A stretch of 18,720 bases of DNA from a virus (Duplodnaviria > Heunggongvirae > Uroviricota > Caudoviricetes), in the IMG/VR virus record IMGVR_UViG_638341086_000012, positions 1-18,720 of that record, one strand, 5' to 3'. The position numbers and the translations under genes are program-made. The first letter of the stretch is position 1; each line of letters opens with the position of its first letter. This document shows, one piece after another, positions 142 to 18,720 of this stretch. The notes under the pieces are model-generated. The model ran no database searches. It had not been told where the DNA came from and saw only the letters and a program-made list of their open reading frames with translations.

Positions 142-331
142 AGCACTTGCTCCTTTTCCGGAGAGGCGCTAACCTTTCACTTGTCAAGGTAATGCGGTTA
201 GGGCCTCGGTTAAACAGAGATGTTTTCCGGGGCCTTTCCACATCTGGCCTTCGGGTATTCCCTCCGACCATCAGCCGAAAGGCACCCGCGCGTAATCTAT
301 CGCTTTTTTGTTGCTCCGGCAATTCTGCCTG

Positions 332-592: not shown

Positions 593-786
593 AGCGACCT
601 CCCTTAACGCAGTGCTGATGTTATTCTAGGTCGTGCTGGCTATAATTCCAACTAACACTTCGTTTTAAGCGAATAGCAGATAGTCGAGTTATCATGTTAT
701 TAGCCAATAAATATACGTGGTAAAAGCTCTTTCTTCGATTTAAAATGTATCTGGATAGTAAATATCTTACGTTAAAGGAAATTGTT

Positions 787-1107
787 ATGGATTTTTTATC
801 TTCGGCGATACTTTCTGGCATAGTTTATGACATGCTTAAACATCATGTTTCGATTACTGCAACTTCAATAAAAGAAAAGTTAAAAAATTGGGTTATTGAT
901 GAGGCTGTAGCCCCTGCTTTAGCTAAAGAGCTTGAAAAACTGTCTTTGAACGATGAAATGAGTGAAATAGCAATTGAAAGAAAACTATTGGATAGTAGTG
1001 AAATTCAAAAAATACTCTCGTCTATAAAACCTCATGCAGCAACTGTCATTATTCAAAACCATAGTGGCACTGGTGATAATATTGGTGGAAATAAAATTAC
1101 GAGGTAG
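787..1107 (+). CDS. Hypothetical small protein (about 106 aa), first gene of the AT-rich cargo operon; no recognisable family
   Basis: ORF-track frame 745..1107. ATG at 787 is preferred because AAGGA at 775-779 sits 7 nt upstream; ATG at 745 has no SD. Very AT-rich relative to flanking phage genes. C-terminal motif IQNHSGTGDNIGGNKI recurs at the N-terminus of the next gene. Confidence 0.5.
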   Translation: MDFLSSAILSGIVYDMLKHHVSITATSIKEKLKNWVIDEAVAPALAKELEKLSLNDEMSEIAIERKLLDSSEIQKILSSIKPHAATVIIQNHSGTGDNIGGNKITR

Positions 1108-1112
1108 TGTCT

Positions 1113-3905
1113 ATGGATAACATTCATAGCTGCAGTTCAATTAGTCAAAATCATACCGGAACAGGCCATAATGTTGCTGGTAACTTAATTATATACAATA
1201 GTGATAATGTTGATTATGCGACTGAGTTAGCGATTGCTGTTTTAGTCGGTTGCTGGGATGAAAAAAATAATGGTGATATTGATATAATTACAAGCCTTAT
1301 TGGCGAGTCATATGACAGTTGGATTCGAAAATTAAGAATAATTGAAGGGATGCAAGATAGTCCTTTGATTCATGAGAGAGGTTCTTGGAGTTTTAAAGAT
1401 AGAATACAATCATTTCAAACGGTATCGTCAAGATTATTCGATGATCATTTGGATTTGTTTCGGACGACTGTTGTATCCGTTTTTAAAACTATCGACCCAC
1501 AATTTGAACTGGCACCTGAAGAGCGTTATGCAGCAGTAATTTATGGGAAGGTTTTACCACACAGCCGATTAATAAGGAAAGGACTATCCGAAGGGTTGGC
1601 ATTAGTTGCAACAAAGCAAGAGTTACTTACTAATTGCTCAAAATATAAAGGGCAATATTGCGCCTCAAGTGTGGTTAAAGAGGTTTTTTCGGCTTCTAGC
1701 TGGCAATTATGGGCTAGTACGCAAGATATTCAAGTTATGCTTGCGGAAAGTGCTCCTGACTGTTTTATCGACGAAGTGGAAAATGCTGCATCTCACCAAG
1801 ACAAGCCATTTGATTCACTTTTTGCACAGGAAGGTATCGGTGGTATTTCAGGTCGGAATTATATGACAGGACTGCTATGGGCTATTGAAGGATTAGCTTG
1901 GGCGCCTAACTATTTATCTCGCTCTTTAGTAATATTAGGGGAGCTGGATAGCCATGATCCTGGTGGCAATTGGGCTAACAGGCCACTTAACTCGATAATC
2001 AACATATTGTTACCATGGCTTCCTCATACTACAGCTGATATAGATAGACGTATTGCTGCTTTCAACGCATTGGCAAGGGAGTGGCCCGATACAGCATGGC
2101 GTGTTTTAGTTCAGTTGCTACCCAACAACACGCAAGTAACATCTGGCACACATATTCCAACTTTTAGAAACTTTATTCCTAACGGTTTTAATAAAAGGCC
2201 ATCGGGTGATGAGTACCGTACTCAGATTGAAATATACACTCAATTAACAATTGAATTGGCAAGTAAATCATCATTAAGACTTGTTGATTTAGTTGAAAAT
2301 ATTGGTAGATTAGCGCCATTTAAATTCGATGATGCAATTAAACTATTGTATGATTTTTCTAAAAAAACAGATAGTGCTGAATTGAAGTTAGCGGTGTGGG
2401 AAAAATGTTTAGAAGTTTATAACAAAAACAAAAGATTCTCAGGTGCTTATTGGGCAATGCAACCAGAACAAAATGAAAAAATCAAAGATGTTTCTACAGT
2501 CTTGAAGCCCGAAAATCCTATGCTTTATAGCAAGCGACTTTTTGCACAAAACAATTACTTCCTATTTGATGAAAATGGAAACTGGCGGGACCAAGAAGAA
2601 AGGTTGACAAAAGAACGAGGGCAATCAATATACGAAATATATGCTATTAATGGTATTGATGGAGTCTTAGAATTCTCTCTATCTATTGAAAGGCCTGAGT
2701 TTGTTGGTAGTAGCCTGGTCGCAGAAGATCTAGAAATTCCTTTAGATATACTGAAAAAACTTATTGTTAGTGATATTAAAAAGGAAAATTCTCTTGCTTC
2801 TGGTTATGTACAGGCTAAAAACTACAGAGAAGGAAAATCATGGGTGTTGACAGTTATTAATGACTGGAGTGCTCAAGAAAAGATTGCTTTTTTTCTTTTG
2901 TTACCGTTTAAAAAAGAAACATGGGATGCATTAAACGCTTCATTTGATGATTTTCCTTTCGAGTATTGGAAAAATACTCTTGTTAATGCATACAGCTGTG
3001 ATTCAACGGAAGAAATTTATTTTGCTATAGACTGCTTGATTAAAGTAGACCGTCCCTTGATGGCAATAGATTGTTTATCTAAAATTTTGCATATCGATAA
3101 TTCAGTTGATAGCAGTAAGGTTGTGCTTGCTCTATTGCAATCAATTAGAACCACAGAAAATATTGAGCGATTTGATATTCACTCATTTAATGAACTTGTG
3201 AATTATATTCAAAATGATAACACTGTTTCAGATGACGACTTAGTAAAGATTGAATGGGCATACCTACCTGTAATTAACAGGGGGGCTAATGATTCGTTGC
3301 ATCCTCAAGTATTAGAGAAAAAACTTGCAAGTGAACCCAGTTTTTTTTGTGAAGTCATTCAATATGCGTATCGATCAGAATTTCAAAAAGCAAGTAAAGA
3401 ACTATCTGAAAGTGAAATAAATATTGCCAAAAACTCACTCTATTTACTTGATGATTGGAAAAAGATTCCGGGTGTTGATGCTGAAGGCAAGTTTGATGTC
3501 AATGCGTTTAATAACTGGTTTGATTTTGTCCAAACAGAATGCGAAAAGTCAGGCCATTTAGATTTTGCTTATCATAGAATTGGAAGCATATTAATTTTTA
3601 GCCCTGCAAATGACGAGCATTGGATACTTCCAGAACTGGCCGAGTTTTTGAATAGACGTGAACTTGATAAAGTGCGTACTGGTTATAAGAATGCGATAAT
3701 AAATTCGCGTGGTGTCTACATTGTTGACCCAGAAGGTAAACCGGAATTGGAGTTGGCCCAACAATATCACACTAAGTCTGATGCAATGGAACTTCTAGGC
3801 TTTCATCGATTTGCCCGAATTCTTCGAGAGTTAGCTCATGAATACCAAGCGGAAGCTGAGTTGATAATAGAACAGCACAGTAAAAAAAAGATTGCTGAGA
3901 TTTAG
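1113..3905 (+). CDS. Large hypothetical protein (about 930 aa), AT-rich cargo; candidate accessory or defence protein of unknown family
   Basis: Uninterrupted 2.8-kb ORF (track 1107..3905; ATG at 1113 preceded by GAGG at 1101-1104). No Walker A, no obvious nuclease motif seen by eye. Sits between gpD and ogr, which are normally adjacent in P2, and on the opposite strand. Confidence 0.75.
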   Translation: MDNIHSCSSISQNHTGTGHNVAGNLIIYNSDNVDYATELAIAVLVGCWDEKNNGDIDIITSLIGESYDSWIRKLRIIEGMQDSPLIHERGSWSFKDRIQSFQTVSSRLFDDHLDLFRTTVVSVFKTIDPQFELAPEERYAAVIYGKVLPHSRLIRKGLSEGLALVATKQELLTNCSKYKGQYCASSVVKEVFSASSWQLWASTQDIQVMLAESAPDCFIDEVENAASHQDKPFDSLFAQEGIGGISGRNYMTGLLWAIEGLAWAPNYLSRSLVILGELDSHDPGGNWANRPLNSIINILLPWLPHTTADIDRRIAAFNALAREWPDTAWRVLVQLLPNNTQVTSGTHIPTFRNFIPNGFNKRPSGDEYRTQIEIYTQLTIELASKSSLRLVDLVENIGRLAPFKFDDAIKLLYDFSKKTDSAELKLAVWEKCLEVYNKNKRFSGAYWAMQPEQNEKIKDVSTVLKPENPMLYSKRLFAQNNYFLFDENGNWRDQEERLTKERGQSIYEIYAINGIDGVLEFSLSIERPEFVGSSLVAEDLEIPLDILKKLIVSDIKKENSLASGYVQAKNYREGKSWVLTVINDWSAQEKIAFFLLLPFKKETWDALNASFDDFPFEYWKNTLVNAYSCDSTEEIYFAIDCLIKVDRPLMAIDCLSKILHIDNSVDSSKVVLALLQSIRTTENIERFDIHSFNELVNYIQNDNTVSDDDLVKIEWAYLPVINRGANDSLHPQVLEKKLASEPSFFCEVIQYAYRSEFQKASKELSESEINIAKNSLYLLDDWKKIPGVDAEGKFDVNAFNNWFDFVQTECEKSGHLDFAYHRIGSILIFSPANDEHWILPELAEFLNRRELDKVRTGYKNAIINSRGVYIVDPEGKPELELAQQYHTKSDAMELLGFHRFARILRELAHEYQAEAELIIEQHSKKKIAEI

Positions 3906-4029
3906 TGTAGTGCTTGTAGTTTCGGAGAAATAAATCTTTGTTTATAAACATTTATAGTAACTACTGACATTGTTGCCGATTATAATTCGTCTTGGTGTAA
4001 GGCGGGTTACACTTGGCCAATCGGTGAAA

Positions 4030-4068
4030 GGCACAGAGCAAAACTCCAATTAGGTTTGCTTCTGTGCC
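4030..4068. terminator. Hairpin in the convergent intergenic region between the cargo operon and gpD; possible bidirectional terminator
   Basis: Inverted repeat GGCACAGAGCAAA (4030-4042) and TTTGCTTCTGTGCC (4055-4068), 13-bp stem with a one-base bulge and 12-nt loop. No strong T-tract on either side. Confidence 0.3.
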
Positions 4069-4115
4069 GTACGTAAGCATGCTAGCCCGTGTCTGAACTA
4101 ATGCATCCCAGTTGC

Positions 4116-5225
4116 TCACTCTGTTTCCGCTATCCATTCCGGGATTTTTGCCTCAAGCTCAAGCTGCGTGGTAAAACCGCTGTTATCAATGGTGTGCTCG
4201 GCTTTTGCAATAATCCAGTCCTGATTATCAATCTCGCTTTTAAATCCTGTTACCGTGCCATGCATTTCGGGGTAGAGTTCTGCACGTCCACGCGCCAGCG
4301 TGATGGAGAATGATGTGGCTCCGCGTTGTAGCTGCTGCCACTTTGCCGCCGCAGCGCGTCTTGCTGCCTGCTCGTTCTGATAAGTCTTGCGTAACACAAA
4401 CACATTTCCTTCCGCGCCTTCCATATAATCACCTTCACGGCTGCTGCTTTTCTCCTTTTTGGGTTTTGGCGGTTTGCGGCGTTTCACGCTGACTTTTTTC
4501 TTTTTCCCGTAATTAAGATCAAGCCAGTAGGCGCGTACCCCCGTATACGCCTCGCGGTCAGCAATACGGAACTGATGGCGATCGCCGCTGCTGCGTGTAA
4601 TGGCGAACGAGGGCAACGGCTGGCCCTGTGCGTTCACGCCACCACCTGGCATGATGAATAACAGATTGCCGCTTTTTACGGTGGTGATTGCGCCCAGCAT
4701 TTCCGCCATGCGCGTAAGAAAGGACATGTCGCTTTCTTCGGTCTGGTCGGCGTGGTCGATTTCGATATCCATCAGCATTTCGCTGATTTGCGGTTTCAGA
4801 CCATACCGATGAGCGATGGCGGATACCACACGCTCAACGGTCACATCATGCCAGGACACCTCACGTTTAACGTTAAATTCATCCCGAAAATCTGCGCTTC
4901 TGGCTGAAACAGTCAGCCTGTCCGGCGGTCCTTCGTGAGCGATTTCATCAACAATGTAAGTGCCTTTTTCTGTCAGCGGTTCTCCTTTCCAGCCAATGAG
5001 AACCGTCAGGCGCGCGCCCCGTGGCGGTAGCTGCAACTGACCATCTGCATCATCCAGCGTGATGGTGAGCTGGTCTGCTTCAAATCCCCGGTTGTCGGTC
5101 AGTGACAGGCTCATCAGGCGCTCTGCCACGCCTGACAGCGTTTTACCCTCCGCGAGAATATCAAAATCCGGCATTTTCACGGGGTCTGTGCCCTGACTGA
5201 GCAATTGCATGGTGGTGTCGGTCAT
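4116..5225 (-). CDS. D: P2 gpD-like late control / tail protein
   Basis: Translation (MPDFDILAEGKTLSGVAERLMSLSLTDNRGFEADQLTITLDDADGQ..., RLTVSARSADFR) matches P2 gpD as recalled. Start placed at ATG 5225 (MTDTTMQ...) because GGGAGGG lies 5-6 nt upstream; the ORF-track start at 5357 is an upstream extension. Confidence 0.88.
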   Translation of the reverse strand: MTDTTMQLLSQGTDPVKMPDFDILAEGKTLSGVAERLMSLSLTDNRGFEADQLTITLDDADGQLQLPPRGARLTVLIGWKGEPLTEKGTYIVDEIAHEGPPDRLTVSARSADFRDEFNVKREVSWHDVTVERVVSAIAHRYGLKPQISEMLMDIEIDHADQTEESDMSFLTRMAEMLGAITTVKSGNLLFIMPGGGVNAQGQPLPSFAITRSSGDRHQFRIADREAYTGVRAYWLDLNYGKKKKVSVKRRKPPKPKKEKSSSREGDYMEGAEGNVFVLRKTYQNEQAARRAAAAKWQQLQRGATSFSITLARGRAELYPEMHGTVTGFKSEIDNQDWIIAKAEHTIDNSGFTTQLELEAKIPEWIAETE

Positions 5226-5382
5226 CTGTTCCCTCCCTGTGCGGCATGGTCGCATGTGCGTGCAGAGGGGGGTACTGCTTTTTGTTGTCGCCGTGGCGGG
5301 AGAATGGCGCAGGAGTGAGATTACACGCGTGGTGGGTGATGATTGTTGCCGAATCATTTAACGGATACAAGGGGCTGAAGCT

Positions 5383-6567
5383 ATGAGTGAAACTCGTTTT
5401 CATGGTGCCCGTGTTACGGAAAATACCGACCTGGTAACAGCGATTAACGATGTTGATTCCAGCGTTATCGGTATCGTGGCAACGGCGGATGATGCGGACG
5501 CGAAGCTGTTCCCGCTGAACAAGCCCACACTGCTGACCCGCGTCAATGACGTGCTGGGAAAATGCGGGACAACGGGGACGCTTTATCGTGCGCTTAAGGC
5601 CATCGCAGACCAGGTGAGCACAAAGGTGATCGTCGTTCGCGTGGCTGAACACAAAGAAGAAGACGGAAAGACGCAGGATCAACTGGTTATCGGTGGTTCT
5701 GAGGATGACGGCAGCTATACGGGGATGTATGCGCTGCTTGTTGCAGAGCAGGATGAAAGCATCGGATACCGTCCGCGTATTCTGGCCGCGCCGGAGCTGG
5801 ACACGGAGGCTGTAACAAAATCCCTGTGCGTGATTGCAGGTAAACTGCGCGCGTTTGTGTATGCCTCATGTCACGGCTGTAACACGATGGCTGAGGCGAG
5901 TACCTACCGCCAGAAATTCAACGAACGTGAGGTGATGCTCTTATGGCCGGACTTCATCGCCTACAACCCAAAAAGTGGCAAAAACGAAACGTTCCCCGCG
6001 CCTGCCTATGCGTGCGGCCTTCGTGCGTACATTGACCATGAGCAGGGCTGGCACAAATCACTGTCCAACGTTCCGGTTAAAAATGTGCTGGGGATGTCGA
6101 GGCATGTGTTCTGGTCGTTGCAGGCCGAAGACAGCGATGCCAACAGCCTCAACAACAAAGAAATCACGACCATTATTCGTCGCAACGGGTTCCGCTTCTG
6201 GGGCAACCGCACACCGGAAACGAACGCCTACATCTTTGAGGTGTATACCCGAACCGCACAGGTGCTGGCTGATTCAATTGCGGAAGCGCAGTTTGAAACC
6301 ATCGACAGTCCACTGACGCCTGCGAACGTGAAGGATGTTATCAGTGCCATCAGGGCAAAACTGGATTCACTGGTTACTGCCGGGAAACTGATTGGCGCGG
6401 AGTGCTGGTATGACGTGGTGGATAACAGCACCACGAATTTATGTCAGGGGCGTGTGCGTATTCGCTACAAATATACGCCTGTTCCCCCGCTGGAAGATAT
6501 GGAGCTTTACCAGACGTTTACTGATGAATACTTTGAACCCGCATTTGCGGTGCTGGGAGGTGCCTGA
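5383..6567 (+). CDS. FI: Contractile tail sheath protein (P2 FI-like)
   Basis: 394-aa product with P2 FI-like blocks (FPLNKP, LRAF, YRQ, WPDF, DQEQGWHKSLSNV, IRRNGFRFWGNRT, YTPVPPLE). AAGGGG SD 8 nt before the ATG. Confidence 0.95.
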   Translation: MSETRFHGARVTENTDLVTAINDVDSSVIGIVATADDADAKLFPLNKPTLLTRVNDVLGKCGTTGTLYRALKAIADQVSTKVIVVRVAEHKEEDGKTQDQLVIGGSEDDGSYTGMYALLVAEQDESIGYRPRILAAPELDTEAVTKSLCVIAGKLRAFVYASCHGCNTMAEASTYRQKFNEREVMLLWPDFIAYNPKSGKNETFPAPAYACGLRAYIDHEQGWHKSLSNVPVKNVLGMSRHVFWSLQAEDSDANSLNNKEITTIIRRNGFRFWGNRTPETNAYIFEVYTRTAQVLADSIAEAQFETIDSPLTPANVKDVISAIRAKLDSLVTAGKLIGAECWYDVVDNSTTNLCQGRVRIRYKYTPVPPLEDMELYQTFTDEYFEPAFAVLGGA

Positions 6568-7079
6568 TGGCTGTGCCAAAACATCTTCGCTTTTTTACGC
6601 TGTTTGTGGATGGTGAAAACGAAGTGGGTAAGGTGACGTCCGTCACTCTGCCTAAGCTGACGCGCAAAACCGACAGCTACCGGGGTGGTGGCATGATGGG
6701 GGCGGTAAGTATTGATCTCGGTCTGGACGACTCCGCGCTTGATGCGAGTTTTGTTATGGGGGGAGCTGTTCGTGCGCTGTTCCTTAAATATGGCGGCACG
6801 ATTGACGGCACGCTGCTGCGTTTTGCGGGTGAATACTACACCGATGCAGAAAGCGATCTGTATGAAATCGAGATGCGCGGACGTGTGACGGAAATTGATA
6901 TGGGGGAAGCCAAACAGGGCGAAGCCACATCACACACTTACGCTGTCAAAAACACCTACTACAAGCTGAGCGTTAACGATCGCCCGCTGTGGGAAATCGA
7001 CCTGTTGAACCACATCTACCGGAAGGACGGCAAGGACATTGTGCCTGACCGTATCCGTTCCGCGCTTGGGCTTGGCTGA
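6567..7079 (+). CDS. FII: Tail tube protein (P2 FII-like)
   Basis: 170 aa; TLPKLTRKTDSYRGGGMMGAVSIDLG matches the P2 FII N-terminus. Start overlaps the FI stop (TGATG), and GGGAGG lies 8 nt upstream. Confidence 0.95.
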   Translation: MAVPKHLRFFTLFVDGENEVGKVTSVTLPKLTRKTDSYRGGGMMGAVSIDLGLDDSALDASFVMGGAVRALFLKYGGTIDGTLLRFAGEYYTDAESDLYEIEMRGRVTEIDMGEAKQGEATSHTYAVKNTYYKLSVNDRPLWEIDLLNHIYRKDGKDIVPDRIRSALGLG

Positions 7080-7134
7080 TAAGTAATATGCAGGCGGCGC
7101 AGTGCGTCGCCTCTGACTGAAAAGGAGACAACTG

Positions 7135-7509
7135 ATGAAAGACATCGATACTGAAACCCGGAATAACACCGTGGCGGATGATGTGACGGCAGGTGAGGAT
7201 ATGGCTGTCGAACGTGGCGTAAAACTGACCCGACCAATTGAGCGTGGTGGCGAAAAAATCACGTATGTGGAGATCACCGGGGCTATTGAACAGGCTGGAT
7301 CCCTGCGTGGTCTGTCGCTGTCTGATGTGCTGAATCTGAAAGCGGATACCATGTTCATGCTGTTGCCTCGCGTGACCTCGCCACGACTGGATGAAGTGAT
7401 GATTAAAAAAATGTCGTCACGCGATTTTATTCAGTTGTGCGCTGTGGCTGTAAATTTTATGAGCGAGCCAGACTCTGGCGCGAAGAGCGTGCAGGAGACG
7501 GCAGCGTAA
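7135..7509 (+). CDS. E: Tail assembly chaperone gpE-like (upstream frame of the E/E' pair)
   Basis: Position between tube and tape-measure genes; AAGGAG SD 7 nt upstream of ATG 7135; a -1 frame ORF overlaps its 3' end, as in P2 E/E' and lambda G/GT. Confidence 0.8.
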   Translation: MKDIDTETRNNTVADDVTAGEDMAVERGVKLTRPIERGGEKITYVEITGAIEQAGSLRGLSLSDVLNLKADTMFMLLPRVTSPRLDEVMIKKMSSRDFIQLCAVAVNFMSEPDSGAKSVQETAA

Positions 7510-7673
7510 TCACCCTAGTGTGCTTTGAGCACATCGAAGATCTGGTGGCAGATATCGCCGCCATTTTTAACTGGTCGCCCGCCGAAATCTTCATGATGAC
7601 GCCCGGCGAAGTGGTTAGCTGGCGTGAGCGGGCGGCACTTCGCAGCGGGAATGCAGACAATGAAGACTCTTGA
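7135..7673 (+). CDS. E+E': gpE+E' fusion made by programmed -1 ribosomal frameshift (coordinates span both frames)
   Basis: The -1 frame is open from 7407 to the stop at 7671-7673 and encodes ...HIEDLVADIAAIFNWSPAEIFMMTPGEVVSWRERAALRSG. Candidate slippery sites in the overlap are the A7 run at 7405-7411 and A AAT TTT at 7452-7458. Confidence 0.65.
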
Positions 7674-10467
7674 TATCCGGGTCGCTTTCAGCGCCGTTGA
7701 CAGGCTGACCCGGCCTGCCGAAAACGCCCGCCGCCTGATGGGGCAGTTTGGTGACTCCATCCAGCGAACGCAGGGGGCGATCAAAAATCTCGAGCGTCAG
7801 GCGCGTTCATTTGAGCGCGCCCGTGACGCTGTCAGTAAAGCGGATGCGGGCATCGTGAAAGCACGACGCCAGCTTAACGCCCTTAATCAGTTACAACGCA
7901 CGGGTACAGTGCTCAGCGAAAAACAACAAAAGCTGATGCAGCAGTTAAGCACCCGGCTTGAACGCCTGAATGAATCGCGCACACGGGAAATTCAGAAAAT
8001 GCGGGAGCTTGGCGGAGAACTGAAACGCCACGGCATTTCCCTGACAGGCAGCGATAACACCATTCAGCAGGCCATCAGACGCACCGAACAATACAACAAC
8101 CAGCTTGAACGCGAACGGCAGGCGCTTGCGCGTGTAACGCAGGCGCGTGAGCGGTATTCGCGCGCGCAGGAAACAGCGGGAAAACTGAAAACAGGTGGTG
8201 CGCTGGCAATTGGTGCGGCAGCGGCGGGCGGCTATGCTGCCGGGCGTTTTTTGCAGCCTGCGATCGGGTTCGGCAAAGAGATGTCCCGCGTTCAGGCACT
8301 GACGCGAATCGACAAAAACAGCCCGCAGTTTAAGGCGCTGCGTGAGCAGGCGTTAAAACTTGGCTCTGAAACACAGTTTACTGCGAGTGATGCCGCCAGT
8401 GGGCAGAGCTTTCTGGCAATGGCTGGTTTTACTCCGCAGGCCATTCAGGCCGCATTGCCCGGTGTTCTTAATATGGCGCTGGCAGGCGGCGTCGAACTCG
8501 GCGAGACGGCTGATATAGGCTCCAATATCCTCACACAGTTCAACCTGACAGCCGATCAAATGGACCGGGTGGGCGATACGCTGACAGCAGCATTTACCCG
8601 GACCAATACTGATTTACGCGCGCTGGGCGAAACCATGAAGTATACCGGTCCGGTTGCCGCAAAACTTGGTATCAGTCTTGAAGAAGCGGCGGCCATGGCC
8701 GGGATGCTTGCCAATAATGGTCTTCGCGGAAGCGATGCTGGCACGGCCATGCGCGCAAGTCTGTCCCGCCTTGCATCACCGCCAAAAGCTGCGGCTGATG
8801 CACTGAAAGAGCTGGGGGTGTCAGTTGCTGACGCCAGAGGCAAAATGCGCCCGATGGAGGATGTGCTGCTTGATCTCTATAAGGCGACACAAAAATACGG
8901 ACAGGTGGACCAGGTCTCCTTCTTCAAGGACATCGCCGGAGAAGAGGCGTTCGTTGGTTTGCAGACGCTTGTTGCGGCGGCTGGTTCAGGAGAGCTGCAA
9001 AAACTGACCAGAGAATTGCAGGGGGCAAGGGGAGAGGCCGATCGCGTTGCAAAAGTAATGGCCGATAATCTTGATGGGGACCTGAAAAATCTCGACAGCG
9101 CATGGGAAGGTCTTCGTATTCGCATCAGTGATCTGGTTGACGGTCCGCTGCGTTCTGTCACGCAGTGGCTCACGCGGATGCTTGAAAAAATCACCTCGCT
9201 GGCGCAGGCCCATCCGGTACTGACGCGCCAGCTACTGATAGCAGGCGGTGCGTTGCTGGCAATGACTGCAACGATTGGCTCGTTGTCGCTGGTTATTGGG
9301 GTGCTTTACGGGAAGCTGGCCACCTTGCGTATTGGTTTTGACATTCTTACCCGGTCAATGAATGTCGTCAGGGTGTTGCCTGCGCTATGGGGAATGGTGA
9401 CGGGTTCCGTTTCTTTACTGGGAGGCGCTATCGGGGCGTTGTTCAGTCCGGTTGGTCTTGTCGTTGCTGCGCTTGCCGGAGCTGCCGTTCTTATCTGGAA
9501 ATACTGGGATCCCATCAGGGCATTTTTTGCCGGGGTGTTCAGCGGGATTATGGAAAGGCTGACCCCGTTGCGCGAAACCTTTGAACGGTTTGGTCCTGTT
9601 TTTGACGCAATCGGAAGCGGGATCAGCCAGGTGTTTAACTGGTTTAAATCGCTGCTGTCACCGATGGAGTCCAGCAAGGAAACGCTGGATAAATGTACCA
9701 GTGCTGGCGAGATATTCGGTAACGTTCTTGGTGGAGCGTTACAGCTTGTTCTGACGCCTGCAAAAATGTTGCTGGATACGCTGGCGTGGATACTTGAAAA
9801 ACTCGGTGTGCTTCCGGATGAAGCGGAAAGGGCGCGCAAGAAAATCGAAGACGCACAGCGTGCGGCCATTCTTCAGGACAAGGTTGCTCTGTTTCAGGGA
9901 GACATTGCGAAAATCAATCCGCCAAAGCCTGTAGAAAATGGCAATGGCACCGGAGGTGATAAACCCAAAGACAATAAACCGCTCACAGACAGCAATATCG
10001 GTACGCTGCGCAGACTAAGCAAAATTGCTGATAACACAGGTAAGCTGGTTGATGAGACGAAAAAACGCATTGGCCCCGGCGATATTGTCTTTAAGAACCT
10101 GCCCCGCGCACTTGCTGTTCGTGGGGAGTGGCAGGAGCGGAAGATTGCGCAGGTCAGTAAGCCTGCCCCCGCAATTAATATCACCCCCGTGGTTCCGGCT
10201 CCGCTGCCTCCGGCGCTGGTCCCTGTTGTTGCGGCCAGCACCCGCCCGGTGGCGGAGGCCATACGATCACCAGTAGCATCAGTGCCTGCAACTTCCCGTA
10301 ACCGGGAGCCTGTTGCCTCCGGATTTGGTGGTGAAATTCATGTTCATCTGCATAACGTTGTTACGCAGAATCCCCACGAACTGGCGAAACTGGTCGGTGA
10401 AATGGTCAGGGCAGAAATGGAACGGCGCGCCCGTGCCGGGCGTGGCAGTTTTTACGATAAAGATTGA
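7660..10467 (+). CDS. T: Tail tape measure protein (P2 gpT-like)
   Basis: About 935 aa, coiled-coil-rich N-terminal part, central hydrophobic glycine-rich segments, Pro/Ala-rich C-terminal part; immediately follows E/E'. Start uncertain: ATG 7651 or 7660 (ORF-track frame opens at 7624). Confidence 0.9.
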   Translation: MKTLDIRVAFSAVDRLTRPAENARRLMGQFGDSIQRTQGAIKNLERQARSFERARDAVSKADAGIVKARRQLNALNQLQRTGTVLSEKQQKLMQQLSTRLERLNESRTREIQKMRELGGELKRHGISLTGSDNTIQQAIRRTEQYNNQLERERQALARVTQARERYSRAQETAGKLKTGGALAIGAAAAGGYAAGRFLQPAIGFGKEMSRVQALTRIDKNSPQFKALREQALKLGSETQFTASDAASGQSFLAMAGFTPQAIQAALPGVLNMALAGGVELGETADIGSNILTQFNLTADQMDRVGDTLTAAFTRTNTDLRALGETMKYTGPVAAKLGISLEEAAAMAGMLANNGLRGSDAGTAMRASLSRLASPPKAAADALKELGVSVADARGKMRPMEDVLLDLYKATQKYGQVDQVSFFKDIAGEEAFVGLQTLVAAAGSGELQKLTRELQGARGEADRVAKVMADNLDGDLKNLDSAWEGLRIRISDLVDGPLRSVTQWLTRMLEKITSLAQAHPVLTRQLLIAGGALLAMTATIGSLSLVIGVLYGKLATLRIGFDILTRSMNVVRVLPALWGMVTGSVSLLGGAIGALFSPVGLVVAALAGAAVLIWKYWDPIRAFFAGVFSGIMERLTPLRETFERFGPVFDAIGSGISQVFNWFKSLLSPMESSKETLDKCTSAGEIFGNVLGGALQLVLTPAKMLLDTLAWILEKLGVLPDEAERARKKIEDAQRAAILQDKVALFQGDIAKINPPKPVENGNGTGGDKPKDNKPLTDSNIGTLRRLSKIADNTGKLVDETKKRIGPGDIVFKNLPRALAVRGEWQERKIAQVSKPAPAINITPVVPAPLPPALVPVVAASTRPVAEAIRSPVASVPATSRNREPVASGFGGEIHVHLHNVVTQNPHELAKLVGEMVRAEMERRARAGRGSFYDKD

Positions 10468-10479
10468 GGAGTCATGGCC

Positions 10480-10968
10480 ATGATGATGATCTACGGCATG
10501 TTTGTTTTTGAGCTGCGTACGTTGCCGCATCAGCAGTTACAGCAAAACAAAAGCTGGCGGCATGTGAAAAATGAACGCGTTAACCGTTCAGCAAGCTGGC
10601 AGTATATCGGTGCAGGTGATGATCGCATCGTTCTTTCTGGTGTGCTTTATCCTGAAATTACAGGTGGTGAAGTGTCGCTGTCGCTGCTGACCACGCAGGC
10701 GTATACAGGACGCCCCTGGCCTCTGATTGATGGCGTCGGGCAGATTTACGGCATGTATGTCCTGACCGGAACGAATACGACCCGTTCCGAGTTTGATCGC
10801 TACGGTAAGGCGAAAAAGATAGAATTTTCACTGACTCTTGAACGCTGTGATGAGGATTTGCGGGAGCGCCTGCAATCCTCATCGTTCAGCGATATGTTGT
10901 CCGGCTTCAAAGATAAGGTGACATCATCCCTTAATAGTGCGGCCAGCTCAGTTAAGGGGCTGCTCTGA
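10480..10968 (+). CDS. U: Tail protein gpU-like
   Basis: MMMIYGMFVFELRTLPHQQLQQ...WRHVKNERVNR parallels P2 gpU (MMMVLGLFVFMLRT...). GAGGAG at 10466-10471 favours ATG 10480 over the ORF-track ATG 10474. Confidence 0.9.
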   Translation: MMMIYGMFVFELRTLPHQQLQQNKSWRHVKNERVNRSASWQYIGAGDDRIVLSGVLYPEITGGEVSLSLLTTQAYTGRPWPLIDGVGQIYGMYVLTGTNTTRSEFDRYGKAKKIEFSLTLERCDEDLRERLQSSSFSDMLSGFKDKVTSSLNSAASSVKGLL

Positions 10969-11044
10969 TTTAACGTATGTCGCCAATTTCCTGATGAAGG
11001 TGACTGGCGACTTGCTGTTGTATGTCCTTCTCAGAAAATTGTTT

Positions 11045-11073
11045 TTGAATAACAAATAACAGGATTTTATAAT
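11045..11073 (+). promoter_or_regulatory. Near-consensus sigma70-type promoter for the acetyltransferase cargo gene
   Basis: TTGAAT (11045-11050), 17-bp spacer, TATAAT (11068-11073); then AAGGAG (11113-11118) and GTG start at 11125. Confidence 0.5.
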
Positions 11074-11124
11074 CTCTTAACCTTATAACATGTGTGGTCT
11101 GAAATAATAATTAAGGAGATTTTC

Positions 11125-11697
11125 GTGCTGTCTTACTTAATGGCAATTCACTTTGTTTTATTTGGGAAGTCTACTAATTTAAAAAACTTCTGGAAACATG
11201 AAGTAATTCGGCGAAAACGTATGGATATCTGGAGGCTTTTAAGAGAGAAAAAGCAGCGTAACCGGAATTTCCTTTTCTGGTGGCGGTTGGCTAACGAAAT
11301 GTATATTAATGGTAATAAATTACATAAGAAAGCAGCCAAAAAGTTAAACAGTAAAATAATTAACAAATTTGGTTGTGAAATAGGATTGGGAGCAAATATT
11401 GGAAAAGGGTTAACAATTCCCCATCATGCTGGAATTGTTGTTCATTTTGCTGTTGATGCGGGTGAAAATCTGGTATTACGACAGAATACTACCATTGGAC
11501 AGATAGATGGTGACATGCCTGGTTCAAGAGTGAAAATTGGTAGTAACGTTGATATCGGAGCTAATTGTTGCATCATTGGATTGTCACGTAAAATTGGGGA
11601 TAATGTAAAAATAGGTGCAATGTCTTTTATAAATAAAGATATACCATCAAACTGCACATATATAACTAAAAAGAGTGGTGTTGTATTGTATAAATAG
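11125..11697 (+). CDS. Hexapeptide-repeat (left-handed beta-helix) acyl/acetyltransferase, CysE/WcaB/LacA-like; AT-rich cargo gene
   Basis: Repeated [LIV]-G-x-x-x-x hexapeptide pattern (IGLGANIGKGLTIPHHAGIVV, KIGSNVDIGANCCIIG, KIGDNVKIGAMSFI). Strongly AT-rich versus neighbours. ORF-track frame opens at 11092; GTG 11125 is chosen for its SD. Confidence 0.75.
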   Translation: MLSYLMAIHFVLFGKSTNLKNFWKHEVIRRKRMDIWRLLREKKQRNRNFLFWWRLANEMYINGNKLHKKAAKKLNSKIINKFGCEIGLGANIGKGLTIPHHAGIVVHFAVDAGENLVLRQNTTIGQIDGDMPGSRVKIGSNVDIGANCCIIGLSRKIGDNVKIGAMSFINKDIPSNCTYITKKSGVVLYK

Positions 11698-11704
11698 AGT
11701 ACAT

Positions 11705-11745
11705 AAAGCCATCGATATTTCTGTCGATGGCTTTTTCTTTTTATT
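11705..11745 (+). terminator. Rho-independent terminator after the acetyltransferase gene; the same hairpin lies just past the stop of gene G on the other strand
   Basis: Perfect 11-bp stem AAAGCCATCGA (11705-11715) / TCGATGGCTTT (11724-11734), 8-nt loop, followed by TTTTTCTTTTTATT on the plus strand. Confidence 0.65.
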
Positions 11746-12325
11746 GTGGGGCGACTGGCCACTCAACATCCGCTGCTACTGTTGTATCAACACGATTCAA
11801 CAATACCCGATATGTCTTCCATGCAGCCAGTAACGATGCCTCTTCCTCCGTCGCAATATCCAAATCTACGGCATCCTGAAGTGGCGCAATATGCTCACTG
11901 GCTACCTGCATCAGGCTGTTTTTTGTTTCTTCTGCCTCCTGTACCCGAAACAGTTTTTCTGCTTCTGCATCTTTCACCCAGGATGTGCCGTTCCACTTCT
12001 GACACTCTCCATCCGGCGACAACCAGGTAACATTTTCCGGTAACGGACCGAGTTCAGAAATAAATAACGCGTCCCCTGATGCCACGTCATAAACAGTTTT
12101 ACCCCGATGGTCTTCAACGAGATGCCACGATGCCTCATCACTGTTGAAAACAGCCACGAAGCCAGCCGGAATATCTGGTGGTGCAATATCGGTACTGTTT
12201 GCAGGCAGACCTGTATGAGGTGGAATGTATGCATCACCTTCCCCAATAAATTCATTAGTTCCGGTCAGCAGGTTATAAATTTTTATGGTCCGTGATTGTT
12301 CACTCATTCTGAAATCCATGTTCAC
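11741..12325 (-). CDS. G: Tail fibre assembly protein / chaperone (gpG/Tfa family)
   Basis: C-terminus ...[34 protein letters not shown] is the conserved Tfa C-terminal signature as recalled; about 190 aa. GTG at 12325 or ATG at 12319. Confidence 0.85.
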
Positions 12326-12327
12326 CT

Positions 12328-13230
12328 CTACTTAATATCAGAGACAGAATATTGTTTATTGAGCGTATGGGTAGGAGTACCAATAACGATGCTACTTCCG
12401 TGGCTATGTGCGCCAGAGGTGACATTACCTACGGGATTTTCTGGATTAATCCGGTGTATATGCGAACCAGGGCGAAAACGGTTATTAGCCTGATGTTGTA
12501 TCAGTACATCATCAGCCTGATGTTCAGGGTTAATACAGATTTGCCCGGAACGAGAGCAACACGTCCGATAATCGCCGCATCCAATATATTTAGTATCCGC
12601 ATAACGGCAAACGGAATTACCCGGACAGTATGCATATGTGCCAAATACTGCCGACTGGCGAGATTGTGCGTATTCCCAGTTAATTGATTCTGTTTTTTTA
12701 TTAAAGTTATCCCATGCCTGCTTCATCTGTCGGGCAACACTTTCAAACGGCACCTGACCACATCCGGCCCCCATTGCAGGGAATACCACTGTTTTTATTT
12801 TCATGTCTGTCGTTGCGTTTTTATTGTGCTGAAAGATGGCAAGCAGAGCGGCCCAGGTTGCGTTATATACAGCGTCTGTTCCGTCAATTGTCAACGGAAC
12901 ACGCATTGTTGGCGCATGTACCAGCCAGGGGTGATGATTATGCCCCGTTTCAATGACAAATGCAGAACCTACAGGCTGTTCGCCGAGATATTCACGAAGA
13001 ATATGATTCTGAACGCGGGACTGTAACTGAGTACCGAAGAATGCGGTAATGGCGGCATCAACGCCACCATCCATCAGGCCGAAACTATTTGCCGCACTTA
13101 CCATGCAGTCAAATTCTCTGATTGTTTCAAATGGCTTTCCGACAATATTCACACTATCTGCATTTGCAAATACCTGCTTAAATGCTTCAGCCATTTCTGT
13201 TACTGGTGCAGAAAGAATGAGCGTAATCAT
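12328..13230 (-). CDS. Macro-domain (ADP-ribose-binding / hydrolase fold) protein with a Cys/His-rich C-terminal extension, inserted between H and G
   Basis: Macro-domain motif blocks seen by eye: [60 protein letters not shown]-terminal 120 aa contain CPGNSVC...[16 protein letters not shown] and His-rich [11 protein letters not shown] overlaps the H stop (ATGA at 13227-13230); GAGG SD 5 nt upstream; stop 3 nt before the G start. Confidence 0.8.
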
Positions 13231-15053
13231 GCAAGCCTCACAATATAGTTAAATGCGATGTTTTTTACGGTGTTTTCTGCGTTACCCGTAGCGTTAACGG
13301 TGATGGTATGCCCGTGTGAACCTATCGCAACGGAGTGTGTGTGTGCGCCAATTCCTACCGTATGAGTGTGTGCGCCAATATTTACTGTGTGAGAGTGCCC
13401 CCCTGCGTTACTTGTTTTTCCAGTGCCAAGTCCTGAGTTATAACCAGCCGAAACACCATTACCTGCGCCAGTGTTGCCAACAGGAATATTGTGTGAATGA
13501 TCCCCGGCGCTATTCGTGGTTTTAGTGCCATGGTTAAATGAACTGGACGTCTTGGTGCCGTAGTCAAATGATGATGTGGTTTTTGTCCCCAAGTCCGTAC
13601 TGGACGCGCTGGCACTGTGGGAGTGTGATTTAATGCCGTCCTGTTCCTGAGATAATACGGCCCGACCACTGGCGGGTTTGCCCTTAATCGTCCAGCCACG
13701 CATATCAGGGATCACACCAGACGGATAAGCGACTGCAAGCAGGGGATAGACTGTTTTATCAAAAGTCTGCCCCTGCATAACGGTATAGCCTGTAGGCACT
13801 GAATCAGAAGGCCACGGTATCGCCGCACCTACCGGAAATGAATCTTGTGGCGTCCATGGTGTCCAGTCACCCGTTGAGTACTGGCTGCGGGTATAGCTTC
13901 TGGATGTGTCATACACATAGTAAATCTGTGTTATCCCGGCATTTTTAAGCACAACCAGTGTACCCGCAAAATTCTCCGGGTATTTCAGCGCTGCGCTTGT
14001 ATTGGCATTCAATGGCTGATGGTACAGCCCCGGTGTTTTGTAATTATCCAGATTCTGATTTGCACCAATCTCAATACTCTGGTCGTTAAAAATATCCTGC
14101 GATGTAACATTGACATCATTGGCTAGTGATTTGCCATTAACCTTACGTCCAGAGGGCACACGCCCGTTTGCATTGTCATTAGCGGCTTTCACCGCTTTCG
14201 GAGTCGCGGCAAGCGTTTCAGAATCACTGTTAGTGACGCTACTGAGCTGGACTATTCCTTTTCGTGCCGTCGTGGCGTCCTGTGCGGTATATTTCCCGTT
14301 AGCAAGGTCATAGGCTGCCTTTACCGCCTTTGGTGTTGCCGCCAGCGTTTCTGAATCGCTGTTGGTGGCGCTACTGAGCTGGGCTATTCCTTTTTGTGCC
14401 GTCGTGGCATCCTGAGCGGTATATTTCCCGTTAGCAAGGTCATAGGCTGTCTTGACCGCTTTCGGCGTTGCGGCCAGTGCTTCAGACGTGCTGTTAGTGG
14501 CGCTACTGAGTTGAACAAAGCCTTTTGCGGTCAGCGAGGCGTCCGGGTGACGTCGTGACTGTTCATGTTCTTTCAGTTTGTCATTCACGTAATCCACTGT
14601 GGCCATCACCATGGTGTTATCCACGGTAAGCGCCACGGTGGCAGTGCTGGATACGGTCAGAATGGTGCGAAATGTTTGTGCACGTCCGGACCCCTCGGCA
14701 ACGGTTGGTTTGTAACTTTCGGCAGTATTGCCCACCGCGATTAAATCGCCGTGCTCATCAAATACACCAATTTCCCGGATCCAGAATCCACCCGTTTCAG
14801 GAGGAATAACCAGCTCCGCAATAATGCGGTTCTGATGTGTTGCGTCCAGGATGACGCGATTAACAGTATGTCGCCACACCTCATGCACCAGACGGGTCTG
14901 CTTACTGTCTGGTGTGGGCAACGTGCCGCCACCGTCGCCCACGGCCATGTGAGTCAGGCGGACAGGATTACCATCTGGCGCGGCTGCCTGAGCTAATTTT
15001 TTGGCACCAGTATCAGTGATAATGGTTTTAAATTTACGTGTTGTGGTACTCAT
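13227..15053 (-). CDS. H: Tail fibre protein (P2 gpH-like)
   Basis: N-terminus [26 protein letters not shown]...MAVGDGGG...HEVWRH...[10 protein letters not shown] matches P2 gpH; internal [36 protein letters not shown] repeats; C-terminal HxH-rich tip ([33 protein letters not shown]) ending [11 protein letters not shown]. Confidence 0.95.
14160..14528 (-). repeat. About 2.8 tandem copies of a 132-bp (44-aa) coding repeat inside tail fibre gene H
   Basis: DNA segment containing ...ggtatatttcccgttagcaaggtcataggctg... recurs with a 132-bp offset (14286 vs 14418). Encodes KG(F/I)[40 protein letters not shown](Q/R). Confidence 0.85.
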
Positions 15054-15055
15054 GC

Positions 15056-15586
15056 TTAATCGTCCGGATAAATGGTAATGACTTCACCGTCGTAAGTTGC
15101 TGCCGCCGCGAAAATATCCCCCGGGATCTCCTGAATGATATTCAGCCCTGTCATGTGGCGGCTGACCGGGCGGGCATCAGCAATCAACCGCTCCATTTCC
15201 AGATACATTTCCTCCGTCACGCCACTGTCCAGCGTGCCGACTTCAACGGTAAATGTTCCCGGTTCTCCGCCGAACTCCCACCACTCAGACACACGAATGA
15301 GGTATCCCAGCGGCTCAATGGCCCGGCGCAGTGCGCTGATGGTCCCTTTGTGTCGGTGTATCAGCCATGCATCACGAATCACCTGTCGCTTTGTCTCTTC
15401 CGGCCAGTTGCGATCCCAGCGGTCAACGGAAAATGCCCAGGCGAGATAAGGCAGCAGATGCACCGGGCAGGTGTCCGGCGACCACAGCGTGTTGAGGTCT
15501 ACCGGAATGTCTGTAATGCGCGTTCCGACAGCTTCGGCACAACGCATGAAATTGCTGGCTGATGGCGGTAACAGTGAATTACTCAT
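15056..15586 (-). CDS. I: Baseplate assembly protein gpI-like
   Basis: [20 protein letters not shown]...[14 protein letters not shown]...[19 protein letters not shown] matches P2 gpI. ATG 15586 (176 aa, overlapping the J 3' end) fits the P2 gpI N-terminus; ORF-track start 15619 is an extension. Confidence 0.9.
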
Positions 15587-16475
15587 TACGCCCACCTTCG
15601 CTGATGGTGAATGACTCACAGCGCGCCGCCTGTATGTCGCTGATGGCCATATTTTGTGTGGGTTCGATTATCTCCACGCGTTGCACACCGTGCACATGCA
15701 GTGCGGCAGCAATGGCTGACAACGCCACGTCCTGACCGATAAGCCCCTGCTCAGACAGCCACTTCCTGAACGACGATTCCGCCGCGGCCAGAATAGGTTC
15801 GGATTCCGGGCCGGGGTAAAAGTACAGTTTTGCATTCAGCCGCCATGTCACGATTCTGGCACTCTGTACGGTCAAGCGGTCGGCCACCGGGCGGGTATCC
15901 TCTGCATTCAGAACGGCGCGAACGGTATTAAGCAACGCCTCCGTTGCCGTGCCGTCGCCCTCAGTGGACAGGATGGAAACCGTCACGTTGGCCGGAGACG
16001 GGCTGATGGCCCGCGCATCGCGTACCAGACCGCTGGCGCTGCGGGCAAAATACTCGTATGCACCTGACGGGCCAGCAACACTCAGACCGTCATATGCCCG
16101 TTGCGCCCGTAGTCTCAGCGAGGTGTCACTTTCCATCACTGCGTCGGTGGTATCCGTTGCCGGAGTGATAACCAGGCGCTTTGTGTTCATATTGCCCGCG
16201 AGGTTGTCCAGGTCTGTCCCGGCGCTGTGGCTTAGCATGCAGGCGCGTGCACCCTCATTGACCCGCTGGCGTAACAGCATTTCACGAAAAGACATGGTTT
16301 GAGCGATAACGTTCAGGGGTTCCGATTCCAGCTCCAGCGCGGCGGAGACGGCTTCACGCTGTTCGGCAGGATAGGACGCAATCATCATGGCCTTTGTGTC
16401 AGCCAGAATTGCCTCAAAATCAGGCTCCGCGATGATGGCGGGTTCCGGTAACTGGGAAAGGTCAACAGCAGGCAT
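15579..16475 (-). CDS. J: Baseplate assembly protein gpJ-like
   Basis: 298-aa product in the conserved position between W and I, with gpJ-like sequence; SD-like GAGAGAG upstream of ATG 16475. Confidence 0.9.
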   Translation of the reverse strand: MPAVDLSQLPEPAIIAEPDFEAILADTKAMMIASYPAEQREAVSAALELESEPLNVIAQTMSFREMLLRQRVNEGARACMLSHSAGTDLDNLAGNMNTKRLVITPATDTTDAVMESDTSLRLRAQRAYDGLSVAGPSGAYEYFARSASGLVRDARAISPSPANVTVSILSTEGDGTATEALLNTVRAVLNAEDTRPVADRLTVQSARIVTWRLNAKLYFYPGPESEPILAAAESSFRKWLSEQGLIGQDVALSAIAAALHVHGVQRVEIIEPTQNMAISDIQAARCESFTISEGGRNE

Positions 16476-16478
16476 GAT

Positions 16479-17900
<1,422 letters not shown>

Positions 17901-17950
17901 CCACTACAAGGTGCTTAAGAGTGAAGTTTCATTTAGATGAACTTAAAAGA

Positions 17951-18283
17951 ATGGCAACGCTCGATAATTTTGCGCGTTTTCTCAATGAGTCGTCTACGAA
18001 TGAAAAATGTTTGTCGTGTGGCGATACGGATATGTACATGTATTTGACGAATATTGTTGAGGTGGGGCCTGAGCCGAAAACTGCTGAGGAGTGTGATTTA
18101 GGCACTTTTGTTATGCTTGATTACATCGGTCCATTTACTGGGTATCCGGGATATGAGGGACATGATCGGGAAAATATCCATAACTATGAATTCCGACTTA
18201 CCTGTAACAGATGTGGGTTTGTTCATCGTTACTCGGCCCGGGCCTTTATGAACTGGGTAGGCAAGCTGGGTGATGAGAAGTGA
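17951..18283 (+). CDS. Hypothetical small Cys-pair (possible zinc-ribbon) protein; start uncertain
   Basis: ORF-track 17897..18283 begins inside the IS right end; first plausible start is ATG 17951 (MATLDNFARFL...). Two CxxC pairs (CLSCGD, CNRCG). No recognised family. Confidence 0.45.
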   Translation: MATLDNFARFLNESSTNEKCLSCGDTDMYMYLTNIVEVGPEPKTAEECDLGTFVMLDYIGPFTGYPGYEGHDRENIHNYEFRLTCNRCGFVHRYSARAFMNWVGKLGDEK

Positions 18284-18720
18284 TGGCAGAGAATGTTGCA
18301 CATATTTCGCGGTTCAGAAAAAAGAAAGAGAATGCCTATAATGTATCCAACAACCAAGTAACAGGAAGTGGTAATGATGGAGGTGATGGCATGAATGACG
18401 ACCTTGAACGGCGGGTCAGTTGCCTGGAAAGTGATGTGACTGAAATCAAAAACAACCTGATTACTCTCACCACAAGAAGCGAATCCTTTGCTACCAAATC
18501 TGATGTACTGGAGATTCGCGAAGGGTTGAGGCTTGAGATGGCAGAATCGCGCCAATCCCTGAAGTCTGAGATGGCTGATTTACGCCAGTCTCTGAAAGTT
18601 GAGATGGCTGAGCATCGTACTGAACTTCAGAAATCATTTGCAAATCAGACTTGGTTACTCACAGGTATTGTCCTGTCTGCGATGGCCGTGCTTGTGGCTG
18701 TGGTTACTGTTATTAAGTAA
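18283..18720 (+). CDS. Coiled-coil protein with a C-terminal transmembrane anchor; tentatively XhlA-like lysis-associated architecture
   Basis: ATG 18283 overlaps the upstream stop (TGATG). Three tandem 11-residue repeats (EMAESRQSLKS / EMADLRQSLKV / EMAEHRTELQK) precede the hydrophobic tail WLLTGIVLSAMAVLVAVVTVIK. Stop at 18718-18720. Confidence 0.55.
   Translation: MAENVAHISRFRKKKENAYNVSNNQVTGSGNDGGDGMNDDLERRVSCLESDVTEIKNNLITLTTRSESFATKSDVLEIREGLRLEMAESRQSLKSEMADLRQSLKVEMAEHRTELQKSFANQTWLLTGIVLSAMAVLVAVVTVIK

Follow-up and report, generated by a model that had tools for sequence, protein, structure and literature searches.

The window analysed here is a stretch of 18,720 nucleotides (nt), positions 1 to 18,720 of the IMG/VR virus record IMGVR_UViG_638341086_000012 (Caudoviricetes), and it holds a decayed P2-like prophage located between ihfA and btuC. 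A near-identical locus is present in Escherichia coli O39:NM F8704-2. The prophage remnant is tail-only (ogr, D, FI, FII, E, E', T, U, G, H, I, J, and a truncated W) and contains no head genes. Between H, which encodes the tail fibre, and G, which encodes the tail fibre assembly chaperone (Tfa), lies an additional gene whose 300-residue product combines a macrodomain with a four-cysteine region and a C-terminal tail reminiscent of the histidine-rich needle of the fibre itself. A sequence-only reading of the window had singled out this gene, suggesting that its product was made together with the fibre, and perhaps associated with it, as an ADP-ribosylhydrolase directed against host immunity or as a fibre-tip accessory with esterase-like activity.

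The list of open reading frames (ORFs) contains this gene, hereafter the macro gene, at 12328..13230, although on the minus strand, a detail that had to be corrected; it has 300 codons plus a stop, starts with ATG and belongs to phrog_2613, a family of unknown function (E 4.5e-146). Upstream, H (13227..15053, minus strand) encodes a protein of 608 amino acids (aa) matching the Pfam families Phage_tail_fib, Phage_fiber_2 and Collar as well as PHROG tail fibre families, and its translation shows a P2-type N-terminal domain, fibre repeats, a Collar domain and four GxHxH units with a period of 9 residues. Read on the minus strand, the 3' end of H is NYIVRLA-TGA and the ATG of the macro gene overlaps this TGA, so that the ATGA overlap between both genes could be read directly at 13227..13230 (minus strand), with a GAGG 7–10 nt upstream of the ATG. 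The macro gene ends in SVSDIK-TAG, followed by AG-GTG-AAC-ATG, which offers two possible starts for Tfa/G, a GTG at 12325 (2-nt gap, 194 aa) or an ATG at 12319 (8-nt gap, 192 aa). The latter, which is the RefSeq choice and has a Shine-Dalgarno sequence (AGAGGT), is the likelier one. The spacing of 3 nt originally given for this junction was therefore close, but not exact. From the ATG, the chaperone gene extends over 11741..12319 (minus strand) and matches Pfam Caudo_TAP (E 1.2e-40) and phrog_105.

Using a consensus scan, which is a weak test, we found no promoter-like site above chance inside or before the macro ORF, and a scan for terminators detected none belonging to the macro gene itself. 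The terminator-like scan did identify a hairpin with a 13-bp stem at 11705..11734, between the convergent Tfa and acetyltransferase genes, which likely marks the end of the late fibre operon. Since the macro gene lacks a promoter of its own and the operon closes at the hairpin after G, these results support its co-expression with the late fibre genes, as had been proposed from the overlap. The guanine-cytosine (GC) content of the macro gene, the H tip and Tfa is 0.44–0.49, and that of the P2 backbone 0.55–0.62.

The macro-domain motifs first noticed in the translation proved real. Residues 44–169 aligned with the full 118-position Pfam Macro model (PF01661) with 67.9 bits (E 9.6e-19), far above the cut-off of 22. 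A first AlphaFold2 (AF2) model, computed with only the close family as input, was unusable, with a predicted local distance difference test (pLDDT) score of 48. A second one, based on 114 diverse sequences with 27–94% identity, predicted a three-layer alpha/beta/alpha macro fold for residues 1–190 (12661..13230, minus strand) with pLDDT >90; the sequence-only reading had counted a failure to fold in this way against itself. In the same monomer model, pLDDT fell to 52–74 for residues 190–240 and to <50 for residues 240–300. Both loops typical of the fold were found. The predicted first ADP-ribose-binding/catalytic loop (residues 48–58; 13057..13089, minus strand) reads N48-x6-G55-G56-V57-D58 and the second, glycine-rich and phosphate-binding one (residues 154–158; 12757..12771, minus strand) reads G154-A-G156-C-G158 and aligns with GTGVGG of TTHA0132. 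Among the 114 sequences, which cover both clades of the family described below, N48, D54, G55, D58, E84, P107-T-M-R110, G154 and G158 are invariant, and G156 is nearly so. The ratio of nonsynonymous to synonymous substitution rates (dN/dS) is 0.12 for the macrodomain. Judging from these residues, the domain probably retains an intact ADP-ribose pocket.

According to the predicted structure, the closest structural class is the Ymx7/Poa1p-like one (Pfam Macro_2, PF14519), with Ymx7 as the nearest fold, although the curated Macro_2 threshold was missed (23.3 bits versus a cut-off of 27, over residues 42–112 only). The MacroD-type motif is defined as Nx6GG[V/L/I]D. Residues N48–D58 conform to it, while the other MacroD-type motif, G[V/I/A][Y/F]G, is missing, as the GAGCG loop has no aromatic residue. 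The NCBIfam deacetylase and ADP-ribose-binding models yielded 20–53 bits against cut-offs of 200–315, which places the protein outside YmdB/OAADPr-deacetylases. We also rejected membership in the DarG/AdfM group: hhalign against T4 Tk.4 gave a probability of 0.7%, the NCBIfam DarG model matched Tk.4 and not the window protein, and the PADLOC DarG match had an E of 0.0072 over 39 residues only. None of the defence-system models matched the window protein. Thus, among the subfamilies that had been put forward (MacroD, DarG-like, Poa1p-like), the Ymx7/Poa1p-like assignment stands and the DarG-like one falls.

The remaining third of the protein is indeed rich in cysteine and histidine. Its four cysteines are conserved family-wide, C202, C225 and C232 being invariant and C208 nearly so in the family alignments. 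They lie in a region (residues 200–238; 12517..12633, minus strand) predicted to form a beta-hairpin, with AF2 strands at 211–217 and 220–225 (pLDDT 52–74), and probably constitute a metal knuckle or metal site. The tail that follows (residues 239–300; 12331..12516, minus strand) carries GSHIH at 255–259, GAHSH at 273–277 and a degenerate GTPTHT at 284–289. Across the family, tails have 31–62 residues and 36 of the 37 distinct ones contain 1–3 GxHxH units with a spacing of 9, 11 or 18. These 37 tails total 62 GxHxH motifs, as compared with 2.0 +/- 1.4 in composition-preserving shuffles. In phmmer searches, family tails aligned with the last needle repeats of real fibres down to E ~1e-6, with empty reversed controls; for example, the family tail DIYIGAHTHTTDIGAHNHAIHTGAYAYPHAVSPDTHSH aligned with the fibre needle NVYIGAHSHIVGIGAHAHSVYIGAHSHGVTVSPSGHAE at an E of about 1e-6. 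The signal of the window allele alone is weak, with two HxH motifs, a number reached by 7% of the shuffles, and a phmmer E of 3.6. Hence, the echo of the fibre HxH repeats that had been perceived in this protein holds at the family level and is not significant for the window allele by itself. Pfam found nothing in the C-terminus, and Phage_fiber (PF03335) was not reached (E 0.76 in one member only). The motif counts and alignments of the family suggest that residues ~239–300 are a short copy, by homology, of the GxHxH repeat making up the distal needle of the neighbouring fibre, and this resemblance to the fibre's HxH tip strengthens the idea of an association with the fibre.

The tail lacks the last ~15 residues of the fibre and is, consequently, not a simple leftover of a disrupted fibre gene. 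The dN/dS is about 0.3 in the cysteine region and about 0.47 in the tail, so that purifying selection weakens from one part of the protein to the next. When the C-terminal 125 residues were compared with 1.8 billion representative proteins, the search retrieved only family members, fragments and repeat-protein noise, and no other architecture containing the Cys/HxH module, which is thus lineage-specific. It was absent from every standalone relative examined.

The sequence-only reading considered the gene to be an insertion between H and G and not a universal component of such modules, and the distribution of the family agrees with this. The lambdoid phage ev099 and the P1-like phage JL22 possess the same fibre tip and Tfa, with 81–94% nt identity, and lack the macro gene; their homology to the window is lost at 13226/13223 and regained at 12319/12313, exactly at the borders of the gene. 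Among 5,426 complete E. coli genomes, the macro gene occurs at 131 places in 128 genomes (about 2%), including 22 on plasmids, and this type of Tfa at 10,517 places in 4,678 genomes, so that only about 1% of the E. coli cassettes contain the gene. Where present, its setting is nearly constant. In the 80 IMG/VR loci holding the family, from which our counts of related loci are drawn, the upstream ORF has an H-like C-terminal tip in 74 of 76 cases, with N-terminal shafts varying from 139 to 1,172 aa; the ATGA overlap is missing from just two of the 76 loci whose upstream ORF could be scored; and 75 of 78 loci have a Tfa homologue as the next ORF downstream. The backbones spanned include P2-like and lambdoid (Gifsy-1) elements and a probable P1-like phage-plasmid, and the triad is annotated in the P2-like phages Chuche and SEN4/5 and in the lambdoid Gifsy-1 (STM2588.1n). 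The macro gene is, therefore, an optional, gene-sized cargo of a horizontally mobile fibre-tip/Tfa host-range cassette.

The window protein is covered by phrog_2613, and in a neighbour-joining tree its wider family splits into two clades. The enterobacterial proteins group with ~205-aa chromosomal macro genes (45–58% identity) from Chloroflexota, cyanobacteria (including Acaryochloris marina), Acidobacteria, Planctomycetota and Bacteroidota (loci L179-L251), which resemble the enterobacterial phage gene more closely than does any standalone phage macro gene. No conserved partner was found beside the closest of these cellular relatives (about 50% identity), whose neighbours are heterogeneous. 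The second clade contains standalone phage proteins of 170–240 aa with about 35% identity, whose genes follow those for portal, head-closure, MuF-like, capsid or primase proteins or lie amid small ORFs. Several of them, in unrelated phages, are coupled by 1–4 nt overlaps to portal (L095, L098, L091), head closure (L100, L111) or MuF-like (L108) genes, a position in which internal or ejected head proteins are typically encoded. In a Devosia prophage, a macro gene of the phage clade is flanked by the genes for a Collar/HxH fibre (tip ...AENRLRNRAFLACIKY) and for a protein whose N-terminus resembles Tfa, and in the low-GC contig L148 a standalone-type macro gene comes directly after a fibre rich in HxH. 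The fibre-to-chaperone junction is thus occupied by macro genes from at least two clades. The same fold also occurs in jumbo phages (Noxifer; protein 271 of PhiPA3) and giant viruses. In a 463-aa predicted protein from a Logan assembly (P0004), a copy of the macrodomain with 100% identity is fused to actin-like/StbA plasmid-partition domains; this is probably an assembly or gene-calling chimera.

Convergent with Tfa lies a hexapeptide acetyltransferase gene (11125-11697, plus strand), AT-rich (GC 0.32–0.37) and similar to EpsC, CysE and WcaB. It is preceded by a sigma-70-like site with 10 of 12 matches at 11045-11073, and shares the hairpin at 11705-11734 with Tfa; the same gene ('sacF') adjoins tfa in the P1-like phage JL22. 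Its features suggest a moron with transcription of its own, whose product might modify a surface polysaccharide. We tried and rejected the hypothesis that this serine-acetyltransferase-like gene and the macro gene form an acetylation/deacetylation pair, since the acetyltransferase accompanies only about 13 of the 80 macro cassettes and is also found beside a macro-less one. This lack of co-variation weakens the idea of an esterase pair, and the esterase-like activity suggested for the window protein gains no support from its neighbour.

Elsewhere in the window, the tandem Phage_fiber_2 repeats of H (14163-14526) differ in copy number from those of F8704-2, which holds about 132 bp more; RefSeq gives H of that strain as two pseudogene fragments, and H in the window is one intact 608-aa ORF. 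An IS3-family element (16653-17908, with an HTH_Tnp_1 ORF at 16687-17034 and an rve integrase-core ORF at 17154-17900) is inserted relative to the otherwise 98–100% identical F8704-2 locus, inside the truncated W/baseplate end of the remnant. The FI-to-U block is encoded on the strand opposite to J-I-H-G and D. We rejected an inversion artefact as the cause of the FI-FII-E-T-U orientation because Salmonella phage SEN5 shares this layout, which is therefore typical of the lineage. Between ogr and D, the region 745-3905 (plus strand) comprises a GapS6a-family gene (120 aa; NCBIfam antiphage_GapS6a, 5.2e-40) and, after a start/stop overlap, a 932-aa ORF for which Pfam, NCBIfam and PADLOC gave no match and which presumably encodes the partner in a GAPS6-type defence system.

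Our confidence in what the protein is, as described above, is high. As for its function, we tentatively favour, at somewhat less than an even chance, a late hydrolase of an ADP-ribose derivative docked to the fibre/Tfa machinery and serving in counter-defence. In favour of this are the conserved pocket, the optional character of the gene and its nearly fixed place in a late operon, the homology of family tails to the fibre needle, the second-clade macro gene at the corresponding junction in Devosia, and the precedent of AdfM, a late-expressed phage macrodomain that acts in counter-defence. The protein would be made only within the late J-I-H-macro-G message, by translational coupling to H, and hence together with the fibre. 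Its macrodomain would hydrolyse an ADP-ribose derivative, and its fibre-like tail may allow oligomerisation, or docking onto the fibre/Tfa assembly complex, by way of the metal-histidine chemistry and the chaperone that also serve the fibre. The accessory job of the enzyme, which would not be needed for building the fibre, might be the removal of ADP-ribose-type adducts or signals produced by NAD+-based host immunity late in infection.

Several observations weigh against this proposal. We found no experiment or proteomic record in the literature that places the protein in such a complex or in virions, and nothing that shows the injection considered in the sequence-only reading, for which fibres are not known to be a route. 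An enzyme bound to the fibre would be outside the cell at infection, which poorly fits intracellular counter-defence. Reversal of DNA ADP-ribosylation is known for the DarG type, to which this subfamily does not belong. In the window allele, the third repeat is degenerate (GTPTHT, where sister alleles have GAHTHT) and its own similarity to fibres is not significant; more generally, the tail is the least constrained part of the protein (dN/dS about 0.47) and its length ranges from 31 to 62 residues. There are natural variants devoid of the Cys/HxH module, L146 (IMG/VR 3300045988_166783) and L089, both ending at residue 203. These two enterobacterial alleles are still encoded between an HxH fibre and Tfa. 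The fibre-linked macro proteins of Devosia and L148 have no Cys/HxH tail either, so that docking through the tail cannot be a general requirement. Finally, all the enterobacterial copies could stem from a single insertion that has since been hitch-hiking in a recombination-prone cassette.

Alternatively, the enzyme could be free in the cytoplasm, acting late in infection in counter-defence or on NAD metabolites, with a genomic position inherited from one ancestral insertion and a tail resulting from recombination with fibre 3' ends, without any docking role. We consider this possible, if on balance unlikely. Standalone relatives of the same subfamily are found in numerous other settings, late or early, the tail varies and is under weak constraint, tail-less variants persist, the cassette works without the macro gene, and the GC content of the gene matches that of the tip/Tfa cassette. 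Against it stand the retention of the Cys4/HxH module in nearly all of the 53 distinct alleles, with dN/dS <1 and four conserved cysteines, the missing fibre end that distinguishes the tail from a simple leftover, and the second-clade macro gene that arrived independently at the same junction in Devosia. In another view, the protein could be displayed on the virion as a fibre accessory that trimerises by its needle-like tail and rides the fibre tip, directly or via Tfa, its pocket binding or hydrolysing a surface structure (e.g., an ester or phosphate on a ribose- or ribitol-phosphate glycan) and thereby widening or conditioning the host range. Such a role would be consistent with the homology of the tail to the fibre needle, the 4-nt overlap that couples the gene to the receptor-binding gene, its travelling with a host-range cassette across phage types, and a tail that is unstructured in the AF2 monomer; besides, macrodomains include esterases and phosphatases of ADP-ribose derivatives. 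Nevertheless, we know of no extracellular macrodomain substrate, the full set of nucleotide-binding residues is conserved as in the cytoplasmic cellular homologues with about 50% identity, the adjacent acetyltransferase does not co-vary, and our literature searches found no virion proteomics for it, all of which makes this role rather improbable.

Two other explanations appear very unlikely to us. The location between fibre and chaperone, the stoichiometric coupling implied by the ATGA overlap and the name 'phage tail protein' given by NCBI might point to a factor of fibre maturation or assembly, either a second chaperone or an enzyme removing a modification from H or Tfa, but the isolated phages ev099 and JL22 have tips and Tfa with 81–94% nt identity and no such gene, and about 99% of the E. 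coli cassettes of this type lack it. The gene might instead be a lysogenic-conversion moron that the prophage expresses to benefit its host through, for instance, an ADP-ribose-based defence or antitoxin function, in agreement with its intact state in a decayed, tail-only prophage and with the moron-type cargo in its vicinity (GapS6, acetyltransferase); it has, though, neither a promoter-like site above chance nor its own terminator, it is embedded by overlapping codons in a late operon, its GC content matches that of the fibre cassette, unlike the AT-rich acetyltransferase moron, and it matches no defence-system model. A more specific version of the docked counter-defence enzyme can also be envisaged. 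In Pseudomonas N4-like phages, a complex of the fibre-tip/Tfa type is reported by a 2026 preprint to determine sensitivity to the TIR-based type II Thoeris system. It is conceivable, although we think it improbable, that the tail seats the enzyme on the fibre-tip/Tfa complex as a tethered antidote, so that ADP-ribose-derived immune signals or adducts are destroyed where they are made; an enzyme that may stay on the finished fibre is an equally possible variant.

Phage macrodomain accessory enzymes were already known, and counter-defence by one of them has been shown only recently, with AdfM against DarTG2; the present family differs in its subfamily, in its architecture, in which an enzyme is fused to a piece of tail-fibre needle, and in its genomic address, in the most freely exchanged host-range cassette. 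If the tail docks the enzyme to the fibre/Tfa complex, as in the counter-defence model that we favour, ADP-ribose chemistry would be linked to the receptor-binding machinery and host-range cassettes would prove able to transfer genes for immune evasion together with receptor specificity. An enzyme that remained on the finished fibre would be the first macrodomain displayed on a virion surface. Even if the tail does nothing, the gene would still be a clean example of a late-operon accessory gene spread by cassette exchange. Members of the family in Gifsy-1 of Salmonella LT2, in the isolated phages Chuche and SEN4/5, and in about 2% of the complete E. coli genomes make it genetically tractable.

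In our full-text searches of the literature, neither functional nor proteomic work on a fibre-linked macro gene turned up, nor any description of its fibre-like tail or of its recurrent placement between fibre and Tfa. The direct family members STM2588.1n of Gifsy-1 and gp19 of SEN4/SEN5 have 68–69% identity with the window protein and the same position between Stf/H and Tfa, but differ by a shorter tail of 36 residues, in which one or two HxH motifs occur. Their annotations do not go beyond 'contains Macro domain' (Gifsy-1, as flagged in its GenBank record) or 'macro domain-containing protein'. The latter is also the name of the 100% identical protein cluster, and NCBI calls many members 'phage tail protein', a name that appears to derive from position only. 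The macro tails share GxHxH units (1–3, with 9- or 11-residue spacing) with needles of the T4 gp37 type and the HxH needles of the P2 H/lambda Stf type; at most 44 of their residues can be aligned with the distal needle of neighbouring fibres, and their gene lies directly upstream of Tfa. Unlike fibre needles, they measure only 31–62 residues, lack the terminal segment of the fibre and are joined to an enzyme instead of a shaft. The standalone phage macro proteins of phrog_2613 (the 'Appr-1-p processing protein' of Microcystis phage Mae-JY35, those of Sinorhizobium phages phiM7/M12, and Noxifer gp281) belong to the same subfamily, share its invariant residues and, as the window gene, are often translationally coupled in structural-gene operons. 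They differ in having about 35% identity, a clade of their own and no Cys4/HxH module, and most are not encoded beside fibres. Also among the closest known systems are the yeast ADP-ribose-1''-phosphate phosphatases Ymx7/YMR087W and Poa1p (Macro_2 class). AdfM (T4 Tk.4, PhiKZ gp104) is, like the window protein, a phage-encoded macrodomain; it counters DarTG2 by removing ADP-ribose, and that of PhiKZ is expressed late (PMC13309987; bioRxiv 10.1101/2025.11.20.689424), which makes it the functional precedent for a role in counter-defence. It differs in its subfamily, in the absence of a fibre-like tail and in not being encoded in a fibre cassette. PhiPA3 carries both types, an AdfM (gp108 in PMC13309987) and, separately, protein 271, which matches the fold of the window protein.

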